Positions 2,793-40,884 of a stretch of 40,884 bases of DNA are shown piece by piece. A model generated the notes under the pieces. It saw only the letters and a program-made list of their open reading frames with translations, had not been told where the DNA came from and did not search any database. The stretch is from UHGV virus genome UHGV-2008032; one strand, written 5' to 3'. How positions within the stretch are numbered: position 1 is the stretch's first letter; each line of letters begins with the position of its first letter. A program made the translations under genes and the position numbers. The stretch comes from a virus.

Positions 2793-3956
2793 TCACGCGA
2801 TATTCACCAGTTCAGCAAAAGCGCCTTGTGCCATATTTGTGCCATTCCCCGCCAGAAATGAGTCGATTTGCATGGCATGCTGCGTCAGGTGATTCGGTGC
2901 CAGATGGGCATAACGCTGTACCATCTCGATACTTTCCCACCCGCCCATTTCCTGTAGCGCACTGAGTGGCACGCCGGACTGTACAAGCCAGCTTGCCCAG
3001 GTGTGCCGCAGGTCATGGAAGCGGAAATTTTCTATTCCCGCCCGCCTTAACGCTGCTCGCCATGCCGTGTTAGCATCAGACCGCATTTTGCGCACTGCCT
3101 TTGTTCTCGTTCCATCCGGGCGAACGGATGATTCAGTGTGAACAAAGACCCACCGGTTATGTTTCCCCAGCTGCTCCCGCAGCACCTTACAGGCCGATTC
3201 GTTCAGGGCGACCCCAATCGCCCTTCCTGCTTTCGCGTCCTCGGGGTGAATCCACGCGACCTTCCTCTGCATATCAATTTGTGACCACTCCAGATCGGTG
3301 ATGTTCGACCTGCGCAGCCCCGTCGCCAGTGCAAAAATAACAACTGGCTTCATATGCTCGGGAAGTTCCCGGATCAGGTTCGCCGCTTCCTCTTTGGTTA
3401 GCCAGCGAATACGCTTATTTTTCGGCACCGGGCATTTGATGTTCGGCGCCTTGGCTATCCATCGCCATTCGTTGGCCGCACATCGTAACAGCGCCCGGAT
3501 GAAAGCAAGGTGCGTCGCCTTCGTCGCCAGCGACGCTGGTTTATCCTTAAATTCAGGAACCGGCTTACCTCTTCGCAGCAGGCTGTCCCGTTTCGCCTCC
3601 CAGTTCATTCGATGTTTGCGATTAACCATCGAACTCACCGCCGACAAGATCCTGTCTTCCGTGATTGCTGACAGGTCCATTCCTTTGAAGTGCATTCTCC
3701 AGAATCCGATCCGGCTTTTGTCATCGTCCAGGCTTTTCTTGTGCTGCTTTTCGTTAAGCCAGCGAACGCACGCTTCATCGAACGTTCTCGGCTTAAACTC
3801 ACCCATCTTATCAACTCGCCATGCTTCAGCTTTCAGCTGATCATAGAGCTCCTGCGCTTGCCTTTTGTCCGTTGTCCCAAGAGACCGTCTAATTCGACTT
3901 CCACCAGGCGTAACGAAGTCGCAGTGCCACGTACCGGCACGTTGTTTGATTGACAT
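2793..3956 (-). CDS. int: Tyrosine integrase
   Basis: 387 aa; N-terminal arm-binding-like domain; C-terminal HDLRHTWAS ... VQRYAHL catalytic motifs; adjacent to att core. Confidence 0.9.
2827..2841 (+). repeat. Arm-type repeat TGTGCCATATTTGTG (P' arm, inside int 3' end), tandem with TGTGCCATT
   Basis: Exact copy of 2609..2623 on the other side of the core. Confidence 0.5.
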
Positions 3957-16681: not shown

Positions 16682-16863
16682 ACGCCACAATTCAAACGAT
16701 ACCAGAGCTTCTTATCCAGACACGAGGCAATCAGACCGAAGTGGCGAGGATGCTTTCCTGTGCAAGAGGAACAGTGCTCAAGTACAACCGAGACAGCAAA
16801 GGTGAGCGTCACGTAATAGTTAACGGCGTCCTGATGGTAACGCCAGGCAAAAAGGGAAGATGA
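16678..16863 (+). CDS. ninH: NinH-like small DNA-binding protein
   Basis: ...YGNQTEVARMLSCARGTVLKY... matches the lambda NinH pattern. Confidence 0.6.
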   Translation: MNATIQTIPELLIQTRGNQTEVARMLSCARGTVLKYNRDSKGERHVIVNGVLMVTPGKKGR

Positions 16864-17381
16864 TGAGCATAAGAGAACTAAACCTCACCAAAGAACAGCA
16901 CGATTGGCTGAATTGCTGGCTTGAACTGTGGGGCGCATGGGTTTATTCAGGTCGTCTGGAAAAGCGCATGAGCAGCGTAATAGCGAAGTTCATGGAGAGC
17001 GTAGAGCCGGGAAGAGTTATGACAAGGCCAATGTGCAATGATGATGATGGAATGTTGATTTCTCAGGTCGTCGATTCCGTCATGTACATTGACAAGAAAG
17101 CCTTTGGCATCCTCCTCAGCTACTACGCTCATGGTTCATCTAAGCGAGCAATTGCATCCTACTATCACGCGACTGCAAAGCCACGCAAGATGTGTGGACG
17201 TGGTGGCGAGGGATGGAGAAAACCTTCACTGGCAACCTGTAGAAACGAAATTGACGACATCCTGAAAGCGTCGTTATTTGTTTTGTACCAGCCAATGCAA
17301 AATGCTTTCAAAATGCGTAAACGTGTTGAGAAAGTTAAGCATGTTGCTGTTAAAAGCCTTGACATGCAATTATCCATTTAG
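16860..17381 (+). CDS. Late-gene antiterminator Q-like protein
   Basis: Last gene of the nin region; ...WGAW...RPMCNDDDGMLI... pattern resembles Q-family proteins; followed by a strong promoter. Confidence 0.6.
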   Translation: MMSIRELNLTKEQHDWLNCWLELWGAWVYSGRLEKRMSSVIAKFMESVEPGRVMTRPMCNDDDGMLISQVVDSVMYIDKKAFGILLSYYAHGSSKRAIASYYHATAKPRKMCGRGGEGWRKPSLATCRNEIDDILKASLFVLYQPMQNAFKMRKRVEKVKHVAVKSLDMQLSI

Positions 17382-17388
17382 CCATAAT
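17359..17388 (+). promoter_or_regulatory. Late promoter candidate (PR-prime-like): TTGACA-18-CATAAT
   Basis: -35 at 17359..17364 inside the Q 3' end; -10 at 17383..17388 just after the Q stop. Confidence 0.55.
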
Positions 17389-17398
17389 TAGAAGGTAA

Positions 17399-17440
17399 GC
17401 TGCCGTTAGTGACTCTTAAGTTGCAATGGTGGCTTTTTTT
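17399..17440 (+). terminator. Possible tR-prime-like terminator (weak hairpin plus T7 run)
   Basis: 9-bp stem with three G-U pairs and a 17-nt loop, then TTTTTTT at 17434..17440. Confidence 0.3.
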
Positions 17441-17598
17441 GTTTGCACAACAGGTAAGAGCATTGAACCCGCAGACCTCGCGGAATTGGTGAAAGGTGCC
17501 GCGCAGTGCTCTTATCGTTGTGGTGAACTCAATGGCGAGCTAGCAGATAGGCGACAGTGAAAATACTAGTCATGTAGCTGACCGCCGCGCGTACTGCA

Positions 17599-17647
17599 AT
17601 CGGCAGCGCACCGATGGAAGCCGGTTCGATTCCGGCCGCCACAACCC
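17599..17647 (+). other. tRNA-like remnant (anticodon-arm-like and T-arm-like hairpins, no acceptor or D arm)
   Basis: ATCGG/CAGCGCA/CCGAT hairpin then GCCGG/TTCGATT/CCGGC T-arm with canonical GGTTCGATTCC loop; no matching 5' half found. Confidence 0.25.
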
Positions 17648-17808
17648 AAACTGAGCCGTAGCCACTGGCTATCCTGAATTCATCAGTGATAGTTACGCTG
17701 CGGCCTTCTACACATGACCTTCGTGAAAGCGGGTGGTTCAATTCTGCTGTCTTCTTCACGTTAAAAGAGGAATTAGGCTTCGAAAATGCAAAAACTTGCA
17801 AAAATGAC

Positions 17809-17836
17809 TTGAAAACGAGTTTTGAAACTGCATAAT
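17809..17836 (+). promoter_or_regulatory. Candidate promoter TTGAAA-16-CATAAT upstream of the cargo leader
   Basis: -35 at 17809..17814, -10 at 17831..17836 in an AT-rich spacer. Confidence 0.35.
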
Positions 17837-17918
17837 TCCTATATGCTCGGACGTCAAAGGCGAAAGAGCTTACCCACCAGCGAAGATGCCTTGTGCGGAG
17901 CGGTGGGAAACACATTCA

Positions 17919-17947
17919 AGCCCTTGCAGAAATGCAGGGGCTTTTTT
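17919..17947 (+). terminator. Strong intrinsic terminator 31 nt upstream of the first cargo gene
   Basis: 10-bp stem AGCCCTTGCA/TGCAGGGGCT with GAAA tetraloop followed by TTTTTT. Confidence 0.7.
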
Positions 17948-17977
17948 ATTGGCTCAGTGCCACCAGGTGAACACCGT

Positions 17978-18529
17978 ATGCACACGGCGATCATTTGCGC
18001 TTCCGGACCTTCCCTCACCCACGACGACTGCCAGAAAGCCATTGGCGCTGGATTACCCGTTATTGCGGTGAATTCTTCATGGCGCGCGGTGCCGGGATGC
18101 TCTCACATTTACGCGGGTGATCTGCGCTGGTGGGATGTGAACATTCCCGCGCTGCCCGATGGCCCCGAACGCTGGTCATGTAACCGGAGAGCACACACCC
18201 GATACGGCGTGAGCCTCTTCCCGACAGATACCAGCGGCACATTCAATTCGGGGCAGAGAGCAATCCTGTTCGCTCACTGGCTGGGTGCCAGTAGCATCAT
18301 CCTTCTGGGCTTCGATTGCTCAATCTCAAACGGTAGTCACTGGCACGGCGATCACACAGTCCTCGATAACCCGACAGCAGCGAACGTAAAGCGCTGGCAT
18401 GGCGAGTTTGCCCGGGTTGCGGCGCAGCTGCGTGGAAGCGTCAATATCATCAACAGCAGCCGCCAGACGGCGCTTAATTGCTTTCGTCGCTTACCTCTTG
18501 AAGCTGCGATCAGCGAGGTTACATGCTGA
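17978..18529 (+). CDS. Cargo protein A: CstII/GT42-like or DUF115-like Rossmann-fold putative glycosyltransferase
   Basis: ATG 17978 with AGGTGA 7 nt upstream, after the terminator; motifs IICASGPSL, VIAVNSS, NSGQRAILFAHWLGASSIILLGFDCS, HWHGDH parallel the GNGPSL and YLSGIDFY layout of CstII-type enzymes. Confidence 0.45.
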   Translation: MHTAIICASGPSLTHDDCQKAIGAGLPVIAVNSSWRAVPGCSHIYAGDLRWWDVNIPALPDGPERWSCNRRAHTRYGVSLFPTDTSGTFNSGQRAILFAHWLGASSIILLGFDCSISNGSHWHGDHTVLDNPTAANVKRWHGEFARVAAQLRGSVNIINSSRQTALNCFRRLPLEAAISEVTC

Positions 18530-19464
18530 ATCCTCCGATTTACATCGATGGCATGCTGGGAATGGGAGATACCATTTACCAGCGCGCTTTCGTCAAACAA
18601 CTGCCTGCTGGGACATTCATTAAGACGGCATGGCCGGAGCTTTACGAAGATCTGCCGGTGAAAGTTGTCCGAAGTGACACCACGCTCAGAACGCAGCGTA
18701 AAAATGAGTTTCGCAGTTCGGCAAAGTTTTATCCGCCGCCATCGCCACGACAGACGAAGCGAATATTTTACGGACCGTATGATCTGCGGCGCGGTTCGAT
18801 ATTTGATGCGATGCGACGCCAGTTCGGCGTAACGCCAGCAGCGCTTGATTTGCCATCCTTTGGCCCGTCGCAGTTTACGCACCAAAAGCCGATCGCCGTT
18901 ATCCGTCCGGCAACGGTTCGTTCTGAATGGCGTAGCGACTCCCGAAACCCTGACCCCGATTACCTCCTGCGCGCATCGAGAATCCTGCGGAAACATTTCT
19001 GCGTGATTAGCGTTGCTGATTTGCAGGACGGGGAAGAGTGGCTGGTGGGTGAAGAACCAGAGGCGGATCTGAAAATGCACGCTGGCGAGCTCAATATCAA
19101 AGAGCTGATGCGCCTGGTTGAGCATGCCGCTGTCGTGGTTACGCCTGTTGGCTGGGCGCTGCCCGCTGCCATTGCGTACAAAACACCTGTTTACGTTGTC
19201 GCTGGTGGGCGCGGTGGGCATAACGCTCCCGAGATAGTCACCGATCCGGCGATGGATTTATCCCGCGTTGGCTGGGCAATCCCGGACAATTATTGTCGCT
19301 GCGAAGCGTGGGATCACCATTGCGACAAACGCATCTTCAACTTTGATTCAAAATTCGAGACATGGCTGAATGAAGTCGTTTTATCAGGAACTGAACAGCG
19401 GGCTGGTATTCCTCCCGGAGCTGGGCATCGGTCGTTATCCGGTTCCGGCATCACGCCCGTATGA
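18523..19464 (+). CDS. Cargo protein B: GT-B fold, GT9 (heptosyltransferase)-like putative glycosyltransferase
   Basis: 7-nt overlap with gene A; N-terminal IDGMLGMGDTIYQRAFVKQL and C-terminal AAVVVTPVGWALPAAIAYKTPVYVVAGG resemble the GT9 layout; Cys/His cluster CRCEAWDHHC. Confidence 0.45.
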   Translation: MLNPPIYIDGMLGMGDTIYQRAFVKQLPAGTFIKTAWPELYEDLPVKVVRSDTTLRTQRKNEFRSSAKFYPPPSPRQTKRIFYGPYDLRRGSIFDAMRRQFGVTPAALDLPSFGPSQFTHQKPIAVIRPATVRSEWRSDSRNPDPDYLLRASRILRKHFCVISVADLQDGEEWLVGEEPEADLKMHAGELNIKELMRLVEHAAVVVTPVGWALPAAIAYKTPVYVVAGGRGGHNAPEIVTDPAMDLSRVGWAIPDNYCRCEAWDHHCDKRIFNFDSKFETWLNEVVLSGTEQRAGIPPGAGHRSLSGSGITPV

Positions 19465-19984
19465 CGAGCAGTATTTCGCGAAGTATCAGCAGCTTGCCGA
19501 CACCGAAACAGGCAGAGCCTTAACGCAATCCCGTATTGAGCTGGTGGCGCGCCATTTTCACGGTCCTGTTCTCGACGTTGGTATCGGTGCCGGTCAGTTC
19601 GTCTCTACCCGACCGGGAACGCTTGGGTATGACATTAATCCGGCTGGTATCGCCTGGCTGAACGAGCGGGGCGCATTCGCTGACCTCTACGCCAGTCAGT
19701 GGCGCGCGCTGACGATGTGGGATGTCCTGGAGCACATCGACGAGCCGGAGCTGGCGGTACAGCAGGCTACAGAGTTTGTTTTCGTGTCGATCCCCATTTT
19801 TACCGATGCCGGAGACATTCTTCGCTCGCACCATTTCAGGAAGAACGAGCACATCTGGTATTTCACTGACGACGGTATTAAGCGCTGGTTTGCAGAGCAG
19901 GGCTTCGAATGCGCTGAACAGAACACAATCGAATGCCAGTTAGGGCGTAAGGGCGTCGCTTCGTACGCTTTCCGCCGCGTTTAG
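19370..19984 (+). CDS. Cargo protein C: class I SAM-dependent methyltransferase
   Basis: Motif I VLDVGIGAGQF, acidic loop YDINPAG, WDVLEHIDEP; no DPPY/NPPW DNA-methylase motif; start overlaps gene B by 95 nt. Confidence 0.55.
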   Translation: MKSFYQELNSGLVFLPELGIGRYPVPASRPYDEQYFAKYQQLADTETGRALTQSRIELVARHFHGPVLDVGIGAGQFVSTRPGTLGYDINPAGIAWLNERGAFADLYASQWRALTMWDVLEHIDEPELAVQQATEFVFVSIPIFTDAGDILRSHHFRKNEHIWYFTDDGIKRWFAEQGFECAEQNTIECQLGRKGVASYAFRRV

Positions 19985-20058
19985 TCCCCTCTTAGCCCAT
20001 TGCATTTGGGTTTATTCCAGTTTCGCACACATCACCCGCAAACAGGCGAGGTCAACCT

Positions 20059-20217
20059 ATGAATAGCTCTCACGGGATTTTTGAACAAACCATGAAATGG
20101 ATCGCGCTATATCTGCCGTCAGTTTACGCCGGGTTATGCGCTCTGGGCATCTCAGCGCTTATCGACATACGCGCAGGGAAGCCGAAACTCTACACCGCCA
20201 CTGGCGCGCTAAATTAA
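20059..20217 (+). CDS. Small hydrophobic protein (52 aa) upstream of the holin
   Basis: Hand-translated; GAGGT 7 nt upstream of ATG; one predicted membrane segment. Confidence 0.3.
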   Translation: MNSSHGIFEQTMKWIALYLPSVYAGLCALGISALIDIRAGKPKLYTATGALN

Positions 20218-20248
20218 ATAGAGCAAATCCCCTTATTGTGGGTAAGAC

Positions 20249-20572
20249 ATGAAGATGCCAGAAAAACATGACCTGTTAGCCGCCATTCTCGCGGCAAAGG
20301 AACAAGGCATCGGGGCAATCCTTGCGTTTGCAATGGCGTACCTTCGCGGCAGATATAATGGCGGTGCGTTTACAAAAACAGTAATCGACGCAACGATGTG
20401 CGCCATTATCGCCTGGTTCATTCGTGACCTTCTCGACTTCGCCGGACTAAGTAGCAATCTCGCTTATATAACGAGCGTGTTCATCGGCTACATCGGTACT
20501 GACTCGATTGGTTCGCTTATCAAACGCTTCGCTGCTAAAAAAGCCGGAGTAGAAGATGGTGGAAATCAATAA
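20249..20572 (+). CDS. S: Class I holin, lambda S-like with dual start
   Basis: [20 protein letters not shown]... closely matches lambda S as I recall it, including the Met-Lys-Met dual-start motif. Confidence 0.9.
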
Positions 20573-21032
20573 TCAACGTAAGGCGTTCCTCGATATGCTG
20601 GCGTGGTCAGAGGGAACTGATAACGGACGTCAGAAAACCAGAAATCATGGTTATGACGTCATTGTAGGCGGAGAGCTATTCACTGATTACTCTGATCACC
20701 CTCGCAAACTTGTCACGCTAAATCCGAAACTCAAATCAACAGCCGCCGGACGCTACCAGCTTCTTTCCCGTTGGTGGGATGCCTACCGCAAGCAGCTTGG
20801 CCTGAAAGACTTCTCTCCGAAAAGCCAGGACGCTGTGGCATTGCAACAGATTAAAGAGCGTGGCGCTTTACCGATGATTGACCGCGGTGATATTCGTCAG
20901 GCAATCGACCGTTGCAGCAATATCTGGGCTTCACTGCCGGGCGCTGGTTATGGCCAGTTCGAGCATAAGGCTGACAGCCTGATTGCAAAATTCAAAGAGG
21001 CTGGCGGAACGGTCAGAGAGATTGAGGTATGA
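20556..21032 (+). CDS. R: Endolysin, lambda R-like lytic transglycosylase
   Basis: [39 protein letters not shown]... closely matches lambda R as I recall it. Confidence 0.9.
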
Positions 21033-29059: not shown

Positions 29060-30001
29060 ATGATTACTTTTGATCAGGCAACAGTTGATAGCTCTGGTGC
29101 CTTTCTCATCGGGGAGCTGGAGCGACTCGACCAGACGCTGAACCTGCCACTGGTGGGGTACACCTGGACCCGCGATATCCAACTGCGTGAAGATGTCTCC
29201 ATCGCAGATGACATTTCCAGCTGGACGAATACCAGCTTCGCCGCTGCGGGTACTGGCGCAAATCCGAATGGCAAAAACTGGGTAGGCAAAGACTCAACCG
29301 CTATTGCTGGCGTAAACGTGGATATCGGCAAATCCGGTAACCCGCTGAATCTCTGGGGCATGGAACTGGGCTGGACCGTTGTAGAGCTGGCAGCAGCTCA
29401 GCAGGTAGGTCGCCCGATTGACACCCAGAAGTACGACGGGATGCAGCTCAAATGGCAGATGGACAACGACGAGCAGGTGTATGTTGGCGATTCCGCATTA
29501 AACCTGAAAGGCCTTGTTACCCTGAACGGTGTTCCTGTCAACAACGCTGCCAAAACGTGGGCAACCTCAACACCGGACGAAATCCGCGCAAGCATTAACC
29601 AGGTGCTGTCTGATGCGTGGGCCGCTTCTGGTTACTCTGTGGTTCCGCGTGATTTGCTGATCCCGCCAGAGCAGTTTGCTCTGTTGTCCAGCATCATCGT
29701 TTCATCTGCGGGTAACCAGTCCCTGTTGACGTACCTTCAGACCAACACCATCAGCTATCACCAGAACGGTGTTCCGCTGAATATCCGCGCGGTTAAATGG
29801 CTGAAAGGCCGTGGTGTGGGGAATAAGGATCGCATGGTTGCGTACACCAACGATAAAAAATACGTCCGCTATCCGCTGGTGCCGTTGCAGAGCGTTCCTA
29901 TCCAGTATCGCGGTCTGTATCAGATTGCGACCTACTACGGCAAGCTCGGTGCGGTTGAGCCAGTGTACAAAGAAACCATTTCGTACGTTGATGGCATTTA
30001 A
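29060..30001 (+). CDS. Major capsid protein
   Basis: 313 aa in the expected position; followed by a strong GC hairpin. Confidence 0.6.
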   Translation: MITFDQATVDSSGAFLIGELERLDQTLNLPLVGYTWTRDIQLREDVSIADDISSWTNTSFAAAGTGANPNGKNWVGKDSTAIAGVNVDIGKSGNPLNLWGMELGWTVVELAAAQQVGRPIDTQKYDGMQLKWQMDNDEQVYVGDSALNLKGLVTLNGVPVNNAAKTWATSTPDEIRASINQVLSDAWAASGYSVVPRDLLIPPEQFALLSSIIVSSAGNQSLLTYLQTNTISYHQNGVPLNIRAVKWLKGRGVGNKDRMVAYTNDKKYVRYPLVPLQSVPIQYRGLYQIATYYGKLGAVEPVYKETISYVDGI

Positions 30002-30007
30002 CAGCCA

Positions 30008-30027
30008 TATGGCCCCCTTGCGGGGCC
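30008..30027 (+). promoter_or_regulatory. Stable hairpin just after the capsid gene
   Basis: 8-bp stem ATGGCCCC/GGGGCCAT with loop TTGC; no U-run. Confidence 0.4.
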
Positions 30028-30042
30028 ATTAAGGATGACCCA

Positions 30043-30264
30043 ATGGCAAAAAATAATGCAGTAATACACGTACATACCCCGTTTGTGCTCACGCTTCCCG
30101 ACGGTTCGCGGCGCGAGTTTGTTAAAGGCCGTCATGCAGTGGAGGAAGACGTTGCCACGCACTGGTTCACTCGTGCGCACGCGGAAGTATCCGTTGGCAA
30201 AGCCACAGACGCGCGTAACGAGGTAAAAAATGCCAAAGAATCAAAGTCTGCCAACGGTAAGTGA
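30043..30264 (+). CDS. Small head-associated hypothetical protein
   Basis: 73 aa; AAGGA 8 nt upstream of ATG. Confidence 0.4.
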
Positions 30265-34334: not shown

Positions 34335-36339
34335 CGCAGATACGATTAAAGATTTCCTTGTTTCGCTGGGATTCGATATCGATCAGGCTGGCGCTAATAA
34401 GTTTGAAGCCGTGCTGAAAGGCGTTACCGCGAACGTTCTGAAGGTCGGCGCGGTGGTGAAAGGCGCAGCGCTGAGCATTGTCGGATTTACCACCCAGATC
34501 GCGAATGGTCTGGATAAAATTTACTGGGCATCCCAGCGGACGGGGGCCAGCGTCCAGGGCATCAAAGCGCTGGGCTATGCCGCATCGCAAACTGGCGCCA
34601 GCGCTGAGTCGGCCATGTCCTCCCTCGAAGGGTTGGCTGGCTTCATGCGTAGCAATCCGGGGGCGGAAGGGTTCCTGAACCGTCTTGGTGTCCAGACCCG
34701 CGATGCCAGCGGAAAGATGCGTGATACTGCTGCCATCTTTACTGGCGTTGGGCAAAAGCTCAACAACATGCCGTATTACCGCGCGAAGCAATACGCGCAG
34801 ATGCTCGGCATCGATGAAAACACGCTGATGGCGATGCGCAGAGGGATGGGGCAGCTCAGTTCTGAGTACGCGTTGACGGCAAAGCGTATTGGTTTTAATG
34901 CTGAGTCAGCGGCTAAACAGTCCAATATTTTCATGACCTCCATGCGTAATCTGACGATGACGCTTGGACAGGCGAAAGACAAGATTGGCTCTAACCTAGC
35001 TGGTGGCCTTGCTGGCAGCATTGATAACTTCCGCAGGCAGATACTCGACAACTGGCCGAAGATTGAAGCGGTCATCACGAAGATCATCAAAGGAATTCTC
35101 TGGGCAGGTGACGCGATTACCCGCGTGTTATGGCGAACTGGGCAAGCTGTTGAGGGTGTGATCGCCTGGTTCAAAAAGCTGAACCCAGCCACGCAGCAGC
35201 TTATCGCATTGTTCAGTGGGCTGTTGGTTGCATGGCGGCTGCTAAATACCGCTTTCATGTCATCACCCTTGGGCATGATAACGACGCTTATTATTGCACT
35301 TGGTCTGCTCTTTGATGATTACCAGACGTGGAAAGAAGGTGGCAAAAGCCTGATTGACTGGGGGAAATGGAAGACTGAAATTGATCAGGCCGTCAAAATG
35401 ATTGGTGACCTGAAAAAGACTGTTACGGACCTGACAAAAGCGCTGGCTAAGTTGCTCGGTATTGACCCCAAGTCATGGTCCCTAAAGTGGGATTTTAGCA
35501 ACTTCATTTCGCAAATGGGTGAGTTCGGCAAGATGCTGAACATGATCGCCGACCTGCTCAACGCCATTAAAGATGGCCGCTGGGCTGATGCCGCCAGCAT
35601 CGGCAAACAGATGCTTAATCAGGGCAGCGAAAATCCGTCAGCGATGCCGATGGTAACAGACAGCGCCAACGGAACCGCCGACTGGATTAAAGAGCACTGG
35701 GGATTCGATCCTCGCAGCGTGGGCCGAACGGTGCGCGGCTGGTTCGGTGATGATGAGCCTGAACAGCTCGGCCAGTCAGTTAAGCGGCCACAGCCAACCA
35801 AAGCAGGCTCTGAACTGCTGGGATGGATGCAGCCGATGTTTACCAACCTGGAACAGCTCTACCGGCTTCCGGAGGGGTTATTGCGCAGCGTGGCCATAAC
35901 GGAATCGGGCGGTAATCAGTTCGCCGTTTCAGGCGCTGGCGCGAAAGGTCTGTTTCAGTTTATGGATGGCACGGCGCGCGACATGGGCCTGCGTGGCAAT
36001 GATGTATTCGACCCGGAAAAGTCAGCTCAGGCAGCCGCTAAGTACCTCAGCCAGCTGTTGCGGCAGAACGGCGGAGACCTTAGCAAAGCACTGGCATCAT
36101 ATAACTGGGGGATCGGGAATGTTAAGCGTTATGGAATGGGGCTAATGCCGCAGGAAACGCGCAACTACATTCCGAAAGTAATGAGCAATATGCCCACCAG
36201 CGCCCCGGTGATTCAGCAGGAAACGAATATTAACATCCACGGTGTTTCCGATCCGCGTGAAGCTGCCCGTTTGACTGTTGACCGTCAAAAGGGCGTGAAT
36301 TCACAGTTAACCCAGCAACTCCCCGCAGGACCGAGATAA
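34324..36339 (+). CDS. Tail tape measure protein with C-terminal lytic transglycosylase-like domain
   Basis: 671 aa; central hydrophobic segments; C-terminal ...ITESGGNQFAVSGAGAKGLFQFMDGTARDMGL...NWGIGN... SLT-like. Confidence 0.75.
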   Translation: MSGNADTIKDFLVSLGFDIDQAGANKFEAVLKGVTANVLKVGAVVKGAALSIVGFTTQIANGLDKIYWASQRTGASVQGIKALGYAASQTGASAESAMSSLEGLAGFMRSNPGAEGFLNRLGVQTRDASGKMRDTAAIFTGVGQKLNNMPYYRAKQYAQMLGIDENTLMAMRRGMGQLSSEYALTAKRIGFNAESAAKQSNIFMTSMRNLTMTLGQAKDKIGSNLAGGLAGSIDNFRRQILDNWPKIEAVITKIIKGILWAGDAITRVLWRTGQAVEGVIAWFKKLNPATQQLIALFSGLLVAWRLLNTAFMSSPLGMITTLIIALGLLFDDYQTWKEGGKSLIDWGKWKTEIDQAVKMIGDLKKTVTDLTKALAKLLGIDPKSWSLKWDFSNFISQMGEFGKMLNMIADLLNAIKDGRWADAASIGKQMLNQGSENPSAMPMVTDSANGTADWIKEHWGFDPRSVGRTVRGWFGDDEPEQLGQSVKRPQPTKAGSELLGWMQPMFTNLEQLYRLPEGLLRSVAITESGGNQFAVSGAGAKGLFQFMDGTARDMGLRGNDVFDPEKSAQAAAKYLSQLLRQNGGDLSKALASYNWGIGNVKRYGMGLMPQETRNYIPKVMSNMPTSAPVIQQETNINIHGVSDPREAARLTVDRQKGVNSQLTQQLPAGPR

Positions 36340-36965
36340 TGGATATTTTATCAGCGATTTTTCGCCAGCAATCCCGGCGAATTGGCCTGCTGATCCCCAG
36401 CGTGGTCGTCTCCGAAAAGCATTCTGATGCGCTCGAAATTACTGAGCATCCGGTGGAGAAGCCAACAACGAATAGCGCGTCGGGTTTCATCGCCGATCAT
36501 GCGTATAAGCGTCCCAGCGAAGTCACAATGGAATGCGGCTTTGCTGGTGGCGGTTCGTTGCTGGACTTCATCGATACATCTTCAATCGGCCTCAGCGCCG
36601 GGCTTAGCCCAAAAGAAACATACCAAAAGCTGCTGGATATGCAGCTTGAGCGCGTGCCATTCGATGTGGTTACCGGGAAGAGGGTGTACACCAATATGCT
36701 GGTGCGTGCCATTGAGGTGACGACCGATAAAACCAGCGAGAACGTGCTGAACTGCACGCTTACCCTGCGTGAAGTCATCATAACGCATACAAAAAATGTC
36801 ACCGTTGCTGATAAATCCGATATGCAGGACGGGGTTAGTACATCTGCGGTGCAGAATTCCGGGACTAAATCCACCACCCCAGTAAATGAATCGGTAATTA
36901 AGTCAACAGGGTGGTTTGATGGACTAAAAGGAACCAGTCTTGGTAACTCTATAGGTATCCAATGA
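36339..36965 (+). CDS. Tail/baseplate assembly protein (hypothetical)
   Basis: 208 aa, follows the tape measure gene. Confidence 0.35.
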   Translation: MDILSAIFRQQSRRIGLLIPSVVVSEKHSDALEITEHPVEKPTTNSASGFIADHAYKRPSEVTMECGFAGGGSLLDFIDTSSIGLSAGLSPKETYQKLLDMQLERVPFDVVTGKRVYTNMLVRAIEVTTDKTSENVLNCTLTLREVIITHTKNVTVADKSDMQDGVSTSAVQNSGTKSTTPVNESVIKSTGWFDGLKGTSLGNSIGIQ

Positions 36966-37267
36966 ATGTAACTGAAATCCCTTTATCGCCGGATAACCAG
37001 CTATTTCGCATTCAGTTAGCAGAGACAACATACACGCTGAGAGTCATTTGGCGTGATTCTGCTGGCTGGATTCTGGATGTACAAGATAGCAGTGGCGAAC
37101 CGCTTCTTTCTGGCGTGCCGCTGGTAACCGGTGTAAATCTTCTTGAGCAATATCCTCAACTAGGTATTAACGGGGCGCTGCTCGTTGGCTGCGATGTAGG
37201 CGCACCGGACGAGCCCACCAAAACCAACCTCGGCACATACAGCCACCTCATTTTCGTGCAGGAGTAG
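36962..37267 (+). CDS. Tail/baseplate assembly protein (hypothetical)
   Basis: 101 aa, overlapping-stop arrangement. Confidence 0.35.
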   Translation: MNVTEIPLSPDNQLFRIQLAETTYTLRVIWRDSAGWILDVQDSSGEPLLSGVPLVTGVNLLEQYPQLGINGALLVGCDVGAPDEPTKTNLGTYSHLIFVQE

Positions 37268-37269
37268 AA

Positions 37270-38334
37270 ATGTCTCTTAACTGGATGCGCCATTTTGAGT
37301 TGCAGCTGTTGGACCAGAACGGGCAGGGTATTTCCCTGTCTGATTTTAAGGTCACGTTCCAGATCGAGTGGGCAGATACACGCTGGCCGCGCGTGGCAAA
37401 CGTGAAAATTTACAACCTTTCGACCGATACCACGAACAAGATACTGGGGCAGGAATTTGCCAAAATTCGCATCATTGCCGGGTATGACGGTATTGCGCCG
37501 GATGTTGATGCGAGCCAGGTTGGTGTCGCCCGGGAGATTTCACCAGACCAGGTAGGGCAGGTGAACGGTCAGAACTACGGCCTGATATTTGACGGTGATA
37601 TTCGCTTCACCGTCACCGGGAAGGACAACATCACCGATTCCTGGGTGCTGATTCAGGCCATCAGTAACCACGAAGCGTTCCTCTACGCGACTACCATCAC
37701 CACGCTTGCCGCTGGTTATACCGTTGCGGACCTGCACCGGGCGACTATGCAGGATTTCAACGCGTTCGGCGTGACGCAGGGCATTACCGGTGACTTTCCT
37801 GATACCGTGTTTCCTCGTGGCCGTGCGATTTATTCATCCACCCGTAACGTGATGGATAATATTGCTGCGCAGTGCAAAGCGACATGGCAGCTGGTGGATG
37901 GTCAGGTCCAGATGGTGCCGGAGGATAAATATATTCACGAAGCCATTGTGTTGAATGCCGATACTGGCCTGATCGGTATGCCGCAACAAACGATGGGCGG
38001 CGGAGTAAACGTGCGGTGCCTGATAAACCCAAACATCCGTATTAATGGTCTTATCCAGCTCGATCAGGCTTCGGTGTACCGCGCTGCGCTCGGCAATAGC
38101 GAAATCGCTCAGTCGCCCGGGCGTATCACCGAAACGGAAGAGAACGGCAACCGCGTGCTGACAGGTACGACGTCACAGGCTGCCAGCATTGCGACAGATG
38201 GCGTTTATATCGTCAAAGCTATCGACTATACTGGCGACACCAGAGGTCAGGCGTGGTACATGGATTTGATGTGTTTTGCGCGTGGGGCTCGCGAGCTTTA
38301 CAGCCAGAATGCCATGCTGAAAACCAACTATTGA
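37270..38334 (+). CDS. Putative baseplate hub / tail protein, P2 gpD-like
   Basis: 354 aa; size and position after the tape measure gene. Confidence 0.4.
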   Translation: MSLNWMRHFELQLLDQNGQGISLSDFKVTFQIEWADTRWPRVANVKIYNLSTDTTNKILGQEFAKIRIIAGYDGIAPDVDASQVGVAREISPDQVGQVNGQNYGLIFDGDIRFTVTGKDNITDSWVLIQAISNHEAFLYATTITTLAAGYTVADLHRATMQDFNAFGVTQGITGDFPDTVFPRGRAIYSSTRNVMDNIAAQCKATWQLVDGQVQMVPEDKYIHEAIVLNADTGLIGMPQQTMGGGVNVRCLINPNIRINGLIQLDQASVYRAALGNSEIAQSPGRITETEENGNRVLTGTTSQAASIATDGVYIVKAIDYTGDTRGQAWYMDLMCFARGARELYSQNAMLKTNY

Positions 38335-38344
38335 GGTGAATATT

Positions 38345-38689
38345 GTGAAGCGTGTAGCAGCCGTAATTTTTCTGCTGACTTCGTTTTTATCCTTGAGTGC
38401 ATTTGCTGATTCACAATGTGGTAACTACAGGGTGCACTGGGCGGATGATGGGCTTGCAAGAATTAATGGCGCAAAACCAGAAACTCAAAAAATCACTTTT
38501 CTGAAAAAAGAAGGTGATTATAACAATGTAAAATTTGAGTGGGTTGTTGCTACCGATCAACCCGGTCGCTGGGTGGGAATGGAGTTCATTGGGCGCAACG
38601 GAAAAGCCATTCTCAATGTCCAGTGGCTGCAAGCCAGCATGAATGCGCCGCGTCAGTATGCAACATACGACTGCCGAAAAGTAAAATAG
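38345..38689 (+). CDS. Secreted protein (signal peptide, two Cys) within the tail cluster
   Basis: GTG 38345 with GAGGTG 6 nt upstream; MKRVAAVIFLLTSFLSLSAFA then DSQC...; Cys near each end of the mature protein. Confidence 0.5.
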   Translation: MKRVAAVIFLLTSFLSLSAFADSQCGNYRVHWADDGLARINGAKPETQKITFLKKEGDYNNVKFEWVVATDQPGRWVGMEFIGRNGKAILNVQWLQASMNAPRQYATYDCRKVK

Positions 38690-38707
38690 CCCGCCAGATA
38701 GGCGGGC
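38689..38707 (-). terminator. Hairpin between convergent accessory genes (terminator-like for the minus-strand gene)
   Basis: 7-bp stem GCCCGCC/GGCGGGC with loop AGATA; U-rich tract follows on the minus strand. Confidence 0.45.
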
Positions 38708-38712
38708 ATGCG

Positions 38713-39003
38713 TCAAAAATATTGAGCTTTAATTATAATAAACACAATAATTACGAACAGGATGTTTCTAATTATTTTTTGCTTATGAGTAAGTTGTTTT
38801 TTTTCTGTCGATTTCCCGGGAGAGTAAAGGTTAGTGGTATGCGACAGCCCCGTGCCGGGAAGGCCATTTGTCATCTTTACGCCTTTTTTCCCGATGTTAA
38901 TGGTGGAACCTTTACCACCAATTGAAGTGCTTACTCCGCTTTTGCTAATGTTGATCGCGAGTCCGGGCGCAATCCGGATTCTTTTGCGAAATCTAAAGCC
39001 CAT
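38713..39003 (-). CDS. DUF4236-like protein with C-terminal transmembrane helix
   Basis: MGFRFRKRIRIAPGLAINISKSGVSTSIGGKG...GLPGTGLSH signature; C-terminal IIRNILFVIIVFIII; AT-rich context; AGGAG 6 nt upstream of ATG. Confidence 0.55.
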   Translation of the reverse strand: MGFRFRKRIRIAPGLAINISKSGVSTSIGGKGSTINIGKKGVKMTNGLPGTGLSHTTNLYSPGKSTEKKQLTHKQKIIRNILFVIIVFIIIKAQYF

Positions 39004-39191
39004 TTGTTACTCCTGTAGTCAAGAATGCGATGGTGCAGGTCCACTCTATGGCGGCTTCATGGCTGAAATTGATTTTTAATGCTTACTTGTTGCAAATATA
39101 TCCTAATACACCTTGTGAATATGTGCCATTGCAGCGGAAAAGCCTTACTTCACACTGATGTAGCTTAGTTACTAAGAGATAATTGATACCA

Positions 39192-39215
39192 AACCAGCTT
39201 CGGCTGGTTTTTTTA
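39192..39215 (+). terminator. Intrinsic terminator 10 nt upstream of the baseplate spike gene
   Basis: 7-bp stem AACCAGC/GCTGGTT with loop TTCG followed by TTTTTTT. Confidence 0.65.
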
Positions 39216-39225
39216 TGGGGTTTTT

Positions 39226-39966
39226 ATGCCAATTCCTACTCAATCACAGATCGGCGGCGAGCAGCAGACCGCGCAGGCCATTGCCGATTCGGTGTCTACT
39301 CAGATGCGCGTAGCGATGCCTGGCATCATTCAGTCGTTCGATCCTGACGCTGTAACCTGCACAGTAGAGGTGGCGCTTCGCGGTATTGTTGGCGACGACT
39401 CCACCGAATTAAAACCGCTGGTGGATGTGCCTGTCATCTTCCCGCGCGGAGGCGGTTGCACGCTGACCTTTCCGGTAAAAGAAGGCGATGAGTGCCTGCT
39501 GATCTTTGCCGACCGTTGCATCGATTTCTGGTGGCAGAGCGGCGGCGTTCAGGAGACCGTCGACCCGCGCCAGCATGACTTATCTGATGCGTTCGCCATC
39601 GTTGGCCCGCAGTCGCAAGCGCAAAAAATCAGCGGTATCAGTACCAGCGCCGCGCAGCTGCGAACCGATGATGGTGTGGCGTTCGTAGAGGTTTCCGCAG
39701 GACATAACATCACCGTTCAAACACCGGGCCAGCTCACGGCTACGGCTGAAGGTGGAACGACAATCACATCCCCGACTATCACGCTGAACGGCAACGTAAC
39801 GATTAATGGCAATCTGTCTCAGGGAATGGGAGAAAGTGGTGGTACTGCGACGATGCTTGGGCCGGTTACGGTAACGAATGATGTGACAGCTTCAGGTATA
39901 AGTGTCGCCACGCATAAACATGGCGGAGTTCAGACAGGCGGGGGAACTACTGGAGGGCCGCAATAA
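39226..39966 (+). CDS. Baseplate spike protein, P2 gpV-like
   Basis: 246 aa; C-terminal ...VATHKHGGVQTGGGTTGGP; precedes gpW-like and J-like genes. Confidence 0.55.
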   Translation: MPIPTQSQIGGEQQTAQAIADSVSTQMRVAMPGIIQSFDPDAVTCTVEVALRGIVGDDSTELKPLVDVPVIFPRGGGCTLTFPVKEGDECLLIFADRCIDFWWQSGGVQETVDPRQHDLSDAFAIVGPQSQAQKISGISTSAAQLRTDDGVAFVEVSAGHNITVQTPGQLTATAEGGTTITSPTITLNGNVTINGNLSQGMGESGGTATMLGPVTVTNDVTASGISVATHKHGGVQTGGGTTGGPQ

Positions 39967-40319
39967 TGCGATACCGACGAGAAGATGCTGACGGCGATTA
40001 CACTTTCGGGCAAGGTGACGACACCTTCCTTATCGACAGTCCGGAATGTGTCGCCCAGGCCGTAAAAACCCGTTTCGAGCTCTGGCGCGGTCAGTGGTTT
40101 CTCGATCTGACGGAAGGCACGCCGTATGTTCAGTCAGTGCTTGGGAAACAGCGATCAGACGTCTACATCCTGGCTATACGCGAACGCATACAGGACACGC
40201 CGGGCGTTCTGTCGATTCTTTCCTTCGATACCAATTATGACGGCACCAGCCGCCGCGTCACTTTCACTTCCTCCATTGACACAATCTACGGCCAGACGAC
40301 TGTAACAAGCGAGGCATAA
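39966..40319 (+). CDS. Baseplate wedge protein, gpW/gp25-like
   Basis: 117 aa; position between spike and J-like genes; overlapping start and stop. Confidence 0.5.
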   Translation: MRYRREDADGDYTFGQGDDTFLIDSPECVAQAVKTRFELWRGQWFLDLTEGTPYVQSVLGKQRSDVYILAIRERIQDTPGVLSILSFDTNYDGTSRRVTFTSSIDTIYGQTTVTSEA

Positions 40320-40884
40320 ATGGCTTTGAACCTCGACACGCTGGGGCTATCGGCAACGGTAACCGCCCAGGGGATTAGTGCGCCTGATTACCAGACAATC
40401 CTCGATACACTGACCAGCTATTTCAGGCAGATTTACGGTAGTGATGCCTACCTCGAACCAGACAGCAAAGATGGGCAAATGGTCGCGCTGGTGGCTCTGG
40501 CTGTGCATGATGCTAACAATACCGCTATCGAGATCTACAACTCGTTTTCACCGACGACAGCGCAGGCCGCAGCGCTTAGCAGCAATGTGAAAATTAACGG
40601 GATCACGCGAAAAGTAGCGACAAACTCTACTGCTGACCTTCTGTTAACCGGTACGGCGGGCACGACTATCACGAATGGCTCCGCACGGGATAAAAACGGC
40701 ATTATCTGGAATTTTCCCGCGAGTGTAGCAATCGGGGTTGATGGTACTGTGCTGGTGACGGCCACATGTGCGAATAGCGGTTCGGTTGCGGCGATGGCCG
40801 GGACTATTACCACCATTAACACACCGACTCGCGGCTGGGTGTCGGTAACCAACCCTGCTGCGGCTATTGTCGGTTCACCAGCCG
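40320..40884 (+). CDS. Baseplate J-like protein, N-terminal part (3' truncated by window end)
   Basis: ATG 40320 overlaps upstream stop; 188 codons open to the last base; joins in frame with 1..641. Confidence 0.6.
   Translation, partial: MALNLDTLGLSATVTAQGISAPDYQTILDTLTSYFRQIYGSDAYLEPDSKDGQMVALVALAVHDANNTAIEIYNSFSPTTAQAAALSSNVKINGITRKVATNSTADLLLTGTAGTTITNGSARDKNGIIWNFPASVAIGVDGTVLVTATCANSGSVAAMAGTITTINTPTRGWVSVTNPAAAIVGSPA

Follow-up and report, generated by a model that had tools for sequence, protein, structure and literature searches.

Phage glycosyltransferases are well known from DNA glucosylation and O-antigen conversion and, more recently, from the virions of mycobacteriophages. Freeman et al. 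reportedly described in 2023 mycobacteriophage virion glycosylation cassettes, in which glycosyltransferases and O-methyltransferases are encoded beside capsid and tail genes. Late cargo of another kind, such as stx, is carried by lambdoid phages between the antiterminator gene Q and the holin gene S, where it depends on Q for read-through and is exchanged as a cassette by recombination. Here we describe a trio of genes in the Q-to-holin slot of the UHGV virus genome UHGV-2008032 (40,884 nt; the window, hereafter, is this whole stretch of DNA as analysed). All three lie on the + strand: gene A (17978-18529, 183 AA residues) encodes a Maf/DUF115/GT42-like Rossmann-type transferase, gene B (18523-19464, 313 AA residues) a TibC/GT9-like protein of the GT-B glycosyltransferase fold with a CxCx4HxC cluster, and gene C (19370-19984, 204 AA residues) a class I S-adenosylmethionine (SAM)-dependent methyltransferase. 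We tentatively propose, rating the proposal as just short of evenly balanced, that the trio acts late and in the cytoplasm, where two enzymes of glycosyltransferase fold and one O-methyltransferase would assemble a small methylated glycan on a protein, probably of the virion head or neck. Like the mycobacteriophage cassettes, the trio combines glycosyltransferase-type genes with a methyltransferase gene, occurs by structural genes, is dispensable and is unevenly distributed among relatives; unlike them, it draws on other enzyme families and is not found with Gram-positive-type hosts, and its role in virion glycosylation is here a proposal. With stx-type cargo it shares the slot, the logic of Q-dependent read-through and the exchange by recombination, whereas stx-type cargo is a secreted toxin and the trio encodes cytoplasmic enzymes that are found outside lambdoid phages as well.

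The three co-oriented, overlapping open reading frames (ORFs) reported by the initial annotation, which was made from the DNA letters, are all present, with overlaps of 7 nt (A/B) and 95 nt (B/C), and the same three genes are called by RefSeq in the 99.7% identical E. coli I3 prophage. Scanning IMG/VR with a profile of B retrieved at least 577 loci. In 79 of the 80 closest viral loci, on which gene order was counted, A, B and C follow one another in the same order and usually overlap, so the co-occurrence of the three families is not due to chance. Gene fusions tell of the same linkage: 8 A-B fusions, one B-C fusion and tandem B-B proteins were found among the 147 B-family representatives first retrieved of 150 listed. 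Methyltransferase-B fusions (P0275, P0277 and P0279), GT9-B fusions (P0322 and P0336), a LicD-B fusion (P0245) and a protein that combines A-A-B-B-B with a GT9 domain (P0273) were observed as well, the GT9 domain being genuine in P0322 and P0273. Because fusion proteins join A, B and a methyltransferase, the three are likely to act in one pathway, and because B is fused to other glycan-building enzymes, it is likely to be a partner in glycan assembly. The 1032-AA P0322 additionally gave intein-type Pfam matches, with LAGLIDADG_3 above its cut-off and Intein_splicing and Hint_2 below theirs, and glycosyltransferases would not usually be expected to contain an intein. The three families are already clustered as PHROGs 4603, 6804 and 6564 and are present in phages D3 and PAJU2. 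The trio is thus a widespread phage module, neither unique nor rare, that is kept as a unit in lambdoid phages, HK97-like siphoviruses and jumbo phages. The initial annotation had named a well-characterised module of known function in many phages as an outcome that would refute its reading; the module did prove widespread, but the literature searched yielded no paper on what it does.

Protein A matches phrog_4603 (4e-49). Its sole Pfam match is MptE-like/DUF115 (PF01973), at 30.9 bits, below the gathering cut-off of 34.6 and over profile positions 138-170 only, and many close homologues of A carry a precomputed match to the same family. Searches of the PDB by sequence or profile gave nothing for A or B, for which fold comparison alone was informative, and an NCBIfam scan returned nothing useful for the trio. 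In the fold comparison the best match of A was Maf (PDB 5mu5; 16% identity), followed by archaeal MptE (10.8), the sialyltransferase CstI (10.7), mammalian sialyltransferases and thiamine pyrophosphokinases, indicating a Maf-type Rossmann-like fold. The parallel with CstII and DUF115 folds drawn initially is borne out at this level by structure comparison, and the motifs on which it was based, ASGPSL, LLG(F/Y)DC (LLGFDCS in the window protein) and HWHGDH, are, together with NSG, invariant or nearly so in 42 homologues. Compared with the Maf flagellin glycosyltransferases (5mu5, 632 AA residues), A consists of a 183-AA core without the flanking domains of Maf. The match to CstI/CstII (CAZy family GT42, PDB 2p56) is much weaker than that to Maf and has no counterpart at the sequence level in the PDB, and the name sialyltransferase reflects annotation transfer. 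Unlike the setting in which Maf works, the hosts concerned mostly lack pathways for pseudaminic or legionaminic acid. From its fold and from what all the hosts concerned make, A would probably use a CMP-ulosonic-acid donor, presumably CMP-3-deoxy-D-manno-octulosonic acid (CMP-Kdo), the only such donor common to all these hosts.

That MptE-like is the only Pfam match of A leaves room for a different scheme, in which A would be a pyrophosphokinase of the MptE/thiamine-pyrophosphokinase type that activates a substrate, B would transfer it and C would methylate it, making the trio a small biosynthetic pathway in place of two glycosyl transfers in succession. The N-terminal xSGPSL motif and the G(F/Y)D motif of A, which are those of the Maf/CstII group, point away from this scheme, and we regard it as extremely improbable.

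Protein B matches phrog_6804 and represents a family in its own right, with 857 clusters at 50% identity. Foldseek placed 21 TibC chains on top (E 6e-10 to 4e-8), followed further down by GT9 (1e-6), WaaF (5e-6) and WaaC (1e-4), so that TibC is the best structural match of B by two methods, at an identity of 14-17%. The GT9/GT-B motif layout first ascribed to B thus translates into a heptosyltransferase-type GT-B fold of the GT9/TibC kind by structure comparison, and the Cys/His cluster noticed alongside it consists of C258, C260, H265 and C267, which are invariant in 37 homologues. Like TibC and AAH, the bacterial autotransporter heptosyltransferases (BAHT; PDB 4rap/4rb4), B has a GT-B catalytic core, and its own cluster may correspond to the Cys-rich, metal-type one inserted near their C-terminus. 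When compared by spacing only, and not by structural alignment, Asp110, Thr226/Lys230, Trp305 and Cys339/342/358/370 of TibC stand against the invariant D16, T131-x-R133, the conserved Trp211 and the invariant C258-x-C260-x4-H265-x-C267 of B, D16 being the Asp of the N-terminal G-D motif and occupying the place where the catalytic base would be expected. The cluster lies at a distance from the C-terminus comparable to that in TibC, again by spacing; the iron finger of TibC has four conserved Cys over 32 residues, inserted in the C-lobe, whereas the cluster of B is a compact CxCx4HxC of three Cys and one His in 10 residues. BAHT enzymes have an autotransporter partner, whereas none was found beside the trio in any context examined, and B shows no sign of a dodecamer. 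Residues 292-313 of B, the part that overlaps gene C, are disordered. The donor of B would probably be ADP-heptose or a similar sugar nucleotide, again as suggested by its fold and by what all the hosts concerned make.

BAHT enzymes glycosylate a protein in the cytoplasm (PMC4358343). Since the best structural matches of both A and B are protein-glycosylating enzymes, a protein acceptor is favoured for the trio. A host envelope glycolipid may be considered in its place: the module would then work on the cytoplasmic side of the inner membrane, where residues of the Kdo/heptose type in the inner core of lipopolysaccharide (LPS) would be added or capped, and methylated. This could keep progeny off cell debris or exclude other phages. 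The fusions of B to GT9 and to LicD, a family that decorates LPS and teichoic-acid glycans, are in line with such a target, but Foldseek clearly puts TibC above the LPS enzymes, with the GT9 enzymes (PF01075), the LPS heptosyltransferases WaaC and WaaF among them, 3-5 orders of magnitude behind, and the best match of A acts on protein. Taken with the evidence on expression and genomic context given below, an LPS target appears rather unlikely.

Protein C, as first annotated, is a class I SAM methyltransferase without DNA-methylase motifs. It matches Pfam Methyltransf_23 (1.1e-10; 41.9 bits, cut-off 27), as do all 13 aligned homologues, as well as phrog_6564 (3e-81), and the glycine-rich SAM motif D69-x-G71-x-G73-x-G75 (VLDVGIGAGQ in the window protein) is invariant across these 13 homologues. 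Searching the PDB with a profile of C gave weak matches, to UbiG-type O-methyltransferases only, suggesting that C is nearest to UbiG-like enzymes and that it probably O-methylates the product. Neither a (D/N)PP(Y/F) motif nor a PC-Q/ENV motif of DNA methylases is present in C or in 12 aligned homologues.

These features of C bear on the idea that phage DNA is the target, a base being glycosylated and methylated before packaging as a protection from restriction and other nucleases. DNA alone is a substrate that all of the very different phages with the trio have in common, a related phage has a DNA methylase in the Q-to-holin slot (dam of phiNP), and the patchy distribution of the trio among near-identical phages is typical of arms-race genes. 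Against this, neither a DPPY/NPPY nor a cytosine-C5 motif occurs in C, which is similar to O-methyltransferases of small molecules, no hydroxymethylase, TET-like or base-exchange enzyme lies beside the trio in the contexts examined, and no nucleic-acid glycosyltransferase appears among the top structural matches of A or B. DNA modification is accordingly judged very unlikely.

The anatomy of the slot suggests how the trio would be expressed and shows how it was acquired. Upstream lies the Q antiterminator gene (16860-17381, +; Pfam Phage_antitermQ 1.4e-25; phrog_943 1.1e-92), and downstream the lambda-type holin gene S (20249-20572, +; Pfam Phage_holin_3_1 2.4e-30), the first lysis gene, which is followed by lysozyme and Rz. 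The trio is late-operon cargo between the two and has no homology to morphogenesis or lysis proteins, in keeping with the slot and the lack of such roles proposed at the outset. A promoter scan found the late promoter pR' (17359-17388, +; TTGACA-18-CATAAT) with 11/12 matching positions, at the place of the annotated pR' of HK75, a phage with which the window shares 98.8% identity from position 17400 on; the terminator tR' of the resident Q unit (17398-17439, +) likewise corresponds in position to the HK75 feature Tr'. Within the slot, a cassette of 2,475 nt that carries the trio (17737-20211, +) stands in place of 116 nt of an otherwise identical phage: in viral contig L113 the sequences matching window positions 16862-17736 (99.5%) and 20212-20600 (98.7%) are only 116 nt apart. 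Matching flanks that lie close together, with the trio absent, were also observed in the JEP4 phage and several E. coli prophages, and three E. coli prophages with differing Q and holin alleles have the trio in the same slot. The trio thus has the features of moron-type cargo of the Q-to-S slot, being located downstream of pR'/tR' and upstream of the holin gene, co-oriented with both, and having an empty counterpart site in L113.

Both ends of the cassette bear remnants of foreign genes. On the left, the 3'-terminal ~100 nt of another Q gene, one of the kind seen in Citrobacter phage Omnitron and locus L017, are retained (17733-17835, +), as evidenced by a C-terminal peptide match: the window peptide ...FNSAVFFTLKEELGFENAKTCKNDLKTSFETA matches the C-terminus of the 247-AA Q-type protein of these two. 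It is followed by a second pR'-like promoter (17809-17836, +; TTGAAA-16-CATAAT; 10/12 in the promoter scan), orphaned from its own Q, and by a strong intrinsic terminator detected in a terminator scan (17918-17953, +; an 11-bp stem at 17918-17943 and a T run), which ends 25 nt before gene A. The sequences of both are kept in Omnitron and in the E. coli I3 prophage. On the right, a 5' fragment of 52 codons of a different holin gene (20059-20217, +) is cut at the junction; E. coli I3 and 15 viral loci have this holin at full length after the trio, and MNSSHGIFEQTMKWIALYLPSVYAGLCALGISALIDIRAGKPKLYTATGAL is its N-terminus. Since remnants of a Q gene and of a holin gene lie at its ends, the cassette came in by recombination, from a different lambdoid phage where the trio already was the first late cargo. 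The holin fragment includes a predicted membrane helix. The window accordingly contains two tandem late-promoter/terminator units (17359-17953), the resident pR'-tR' unit and the orphan unit brought with the cassette, and the latter may still produce a short terminated RNA.

No promoter-like site inside the trio and no terminator-like site between C and S were found in the promoter and terminator scans. Expression of the trio should thus depend on Q-mediated read-through: RNA polymerase starting from pR' and modified by Q would read through tR' and the second terminator before gene A, so that A, B and C would be transcribed, late only, as the first genes of the late operon and ahead of the holin gene. 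The initial annotation had named LPS core, a surface protein, the virion and DNA as targets that might be modified on induction. With two terminators upstream and no internal promoter-like site, an LPS modification in the style of lysogenic conversion is unlikely, since late-only expression would have no effect in the lysogen, and we reason that in the minutes before lysis newly made LPS could take the place of only a small share of that on the surface.

A higher GC content of the block and a long antisense ORF had further been put forward as signs of acquisition from another source. The block (0.54-0.59) is indeed richer than its immediate Q and lysis flanks (0.45-0.50), but it is not richer than the structural genes of the phage itself (TerL 0.547, portal 0.562, major capsid protein (MCP) 0.536), whose GC content and third-codon-position GC it equals, and GC was therefore ruled out as a sign of foreign origin. 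The antisense ORF of 289 AA residues likewise exists (18352-19221, - strand), but it is not conserved: the longest antisense ORF varies from 81 to 289 AA residues across loci with B 96-98% identical. It was rejected as a gene, and as evidence of acquisition it is spurious. The mobility of the trio is shown by the remnants at the cassette ends and not by either of these features.

Beyond the slot, the window is a lambdoid phage genome whose first and last parts (1-2600 and 36000-40884) hold baseplate and tail genes; since both ends are of this kind, it looks like a complete, circularly permuted, myovirus-tailed lambdoid genome of ~40.9 kb. Its integrase (2793-3956, -) is 100% identical to that of Omnitron, and IMG/VR contig L014 (40,891 nt) encodes a B that is 97% identical. 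Cargo of tRNA genes in the slot, as in Stx phages, was dismissed since ARAGORN found no tRNA gene in the window, including at 17589-17647, where the sequence resembles the acceptor arm and T-arm of a tRNA or transfer-messenger RNA (tmRNA) (GGTTCGATTCCGGCC; Rfam tmRNA 20.2 bits, gathering score 47). About 140 nt around this position (about 17504-17645) are 92-95% identical to many Salmonella phages, one of which annotates tRNA-Ser there; the pR' leader may here preserve a degenerate tRNA or a relic of attachment-site type. A RefSeq feature named tRNA-OTHER occurs in another carrier of the trio, the E. coli LHM10-1 prophage (L005, 15987-16096), within the head module between a head morphogenesis gene and a DUF2213 gene.

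The contexts in which other phages carry the trio are diverse. In lambdoid phages of Enterobacterales it lies between at least four unrelated antiterminator families (or Rz) and at least three holin families (or HNH/terS). HK97-like siphoviruses carry it within their head-neck block, arranged in one of three ways: MCP-A-B-C-adaptor; MCP-A-adaptor-head closure-B-C-gp10-like, as in phage D3 and about 20 loci; and head closure-A-B-C-gp10-like, as in PAJU2. In the jumbo Klebsiella phage Eowyn it forms an isolated three-gene operon. The Pseudomonas phages D3 (orf7, orf12 and orf13) and PAJU2 (gp10-gp12) encode true homologues of the trio; in PAJU2 A, B and C are contiguous, with A and B 46-47% identical, whereas in D3 A stands apart from B and C. 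P1 (PmgO/PmgP) and P7 (HdmB/HdmC) each encode two A-like paralogues and lack B and C, and PmgP, considered as a homologue of C, turned out to be a second A-like protein. All of these copies are located in head-neck or late morphogenesis operons, in contrast to the Q-to-holin slot of the window, and the labels putative morphogenetic and head morphogenesis given to them rest on map position only. Since the module recurs in head-neck operons and would be expressed late, a head or neck acceptor is favoured, while the same embedding in head-neck operons and the occurrence in a jumbo phage speak further against the LPS target. Without exception, the phage records that contain A (65) or B (29) are of Gram-negative hosts, which fits a dependence on nucleotide sugars of Gram-negative bacteria and is equally what an LPS target would lead one to expect.

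Arrays of A-like paralogues without B or C were also noticed in phiNP (L092, 4001-6410) and in P1 (L006, 4941-6127; PmgO and PmgP). In Citrobacter phage phiNP an unannotated A-like ORF, an annotated sialyltransferase and two unnamed genes are found between Rz and terS. To judge from these sequences, the Maf-like enzyme evidently also works outside the trio. In PAJU2 (L093, AP009624.1; 881-1450) the depositors label the A homologue, ORF010, as a structural protein, like the major tail protein ORF015. Taken at face value, the label is one more point in favour of a head or neck acceptor; if it goes back to an analysis of virion proteins, particles may contain the enzyme itself.

Combining structure comparison, gene linkage and context, it is proposed that A, B and C, all predicted to be soluble and cytoplasmic, would act in turn on one acceptor to give a short methylated glycan. 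This acceptor would most likely be a co-made protein, probably a head or neck component of the virion, and the module would be an optional decoration that is dispensable for assembly. The trio is itself accessory: of 5,426 complete E. coli genomes only about 9 have it, and it is absent from Omnitron, which has 95-100% identical virion proteins. In the capsid region (29060-30264 of the window, compared with L097) the identity to Omnitron is 88.8% for MCP and 59.6% for the small ORF that follows it, lower than for neighbouring virion proteins (94-100%). A link between this MCP divergence and the trio was rejected, as capsid proteins 100% identical to those of the window occur in other trio-negative phages. 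A Ser/Ala/Pro-rich small protein encoded after the capsid gene was also considered as the acceptor; it is present in D3 and L178 and inconsistent elsewhere, and this candidate was dropped.

A number of observations weigh against this proposal. No acceptor came to light, and in the lineage of the window none of the virion proteins varies together with the trio; nearly all of them have 96-100% identical counterparts in phages that lack it. The trio occurs in none of 80 viral loci with MCP 98-100% identical. In the clade with B at least 70% identical the same TerL and a DUF1073 portal are found nearby in 37 of 40 loci, and other trio clades accompany HK97-type heads; but this association is not reciprocal, as none of the 80 closest-MCP loci carries the trio, so a tie to one virion type was rejected and the association looks like linkage and not proof of coupling. 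The module is promiscuous across virion types, and since at least four unrelated head types and a jumbo phage carry it, a single conserved virion acceptor is unlikely. As for B, no Pfam family, Glyco_transf_9 (PF01075) included, was matched at E up to 0.1. The donor-binding motif of GT9, DSG..H, is not evident in B, so its donor may not be heptose. To our knowledge, virion glycosylation by phage enzymes is known only from mycobacteriophages. Finally, TibC has an N-terminal beta-barrel (residues 1-97) that is required for activity (PMC4358343) and that B lacks, its first Rossmann strand starting from residue 6 with G-D at 15-16.

Several of these observations would suit a non-virion target in the cytoplasm, namely a host protein or small molecule that is inactivated or masked by glycosylation, for counter-defence or for late metabolic takeover. 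The accessory, patchy distribution of the trio, its movement among unrelated phage types and the lack of a co-varying virion protein agree with such a role, as does the finding that the A-like genes pmgO and pmgP of P1 are dispensable for lytic growth (PMC10695390). Conversely, late timing is poor against early-acting defences, the module is sited repeatedly within head-neck gene blocks, and none of A, B and C matched a PADLOC-DB model at E up to 0.1, in a library that holds defence and not anti-defence proteins. We consider a host target unlikely, though by no means negligible, and retain glycosylation of a head or neck protein as our working proposal.

A wider generalisation can be entertained, if only as doubtful: many Gram-negative phages would glycosylate their own particles by means of a portable three-enzyme module that draws on CMP-Kdo and ADP-heptose, precursors of host LPS, to equip head or neck proteins with a short O-methylated glycan similar to the inner core of LPS. 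If true, this would be the first virion-glycosylation system outside the mycobacteriophages and the first joint, protein-directed use of Maf-like and TibC-like enzymes, and recognition of the virion by host defences, receptors, mucus or antibodies would likely be altered. The trio is present in classical model phages (D3 and, in part, P1), and since the 2-kb cassette is non-essential and natural isogenic phages with and without it exist, the proposal is easily tested. Should the target be LPS, DNA or a host factor, the trio would constitute a new late-acting counter-measure. Should virions be decorated, the module would be relevant to phage therapy, with possible effects on immunogenicity, clearance and host range, and would matter for the reading of cryo-electron microscopy maps and mass spectra of phage particles.

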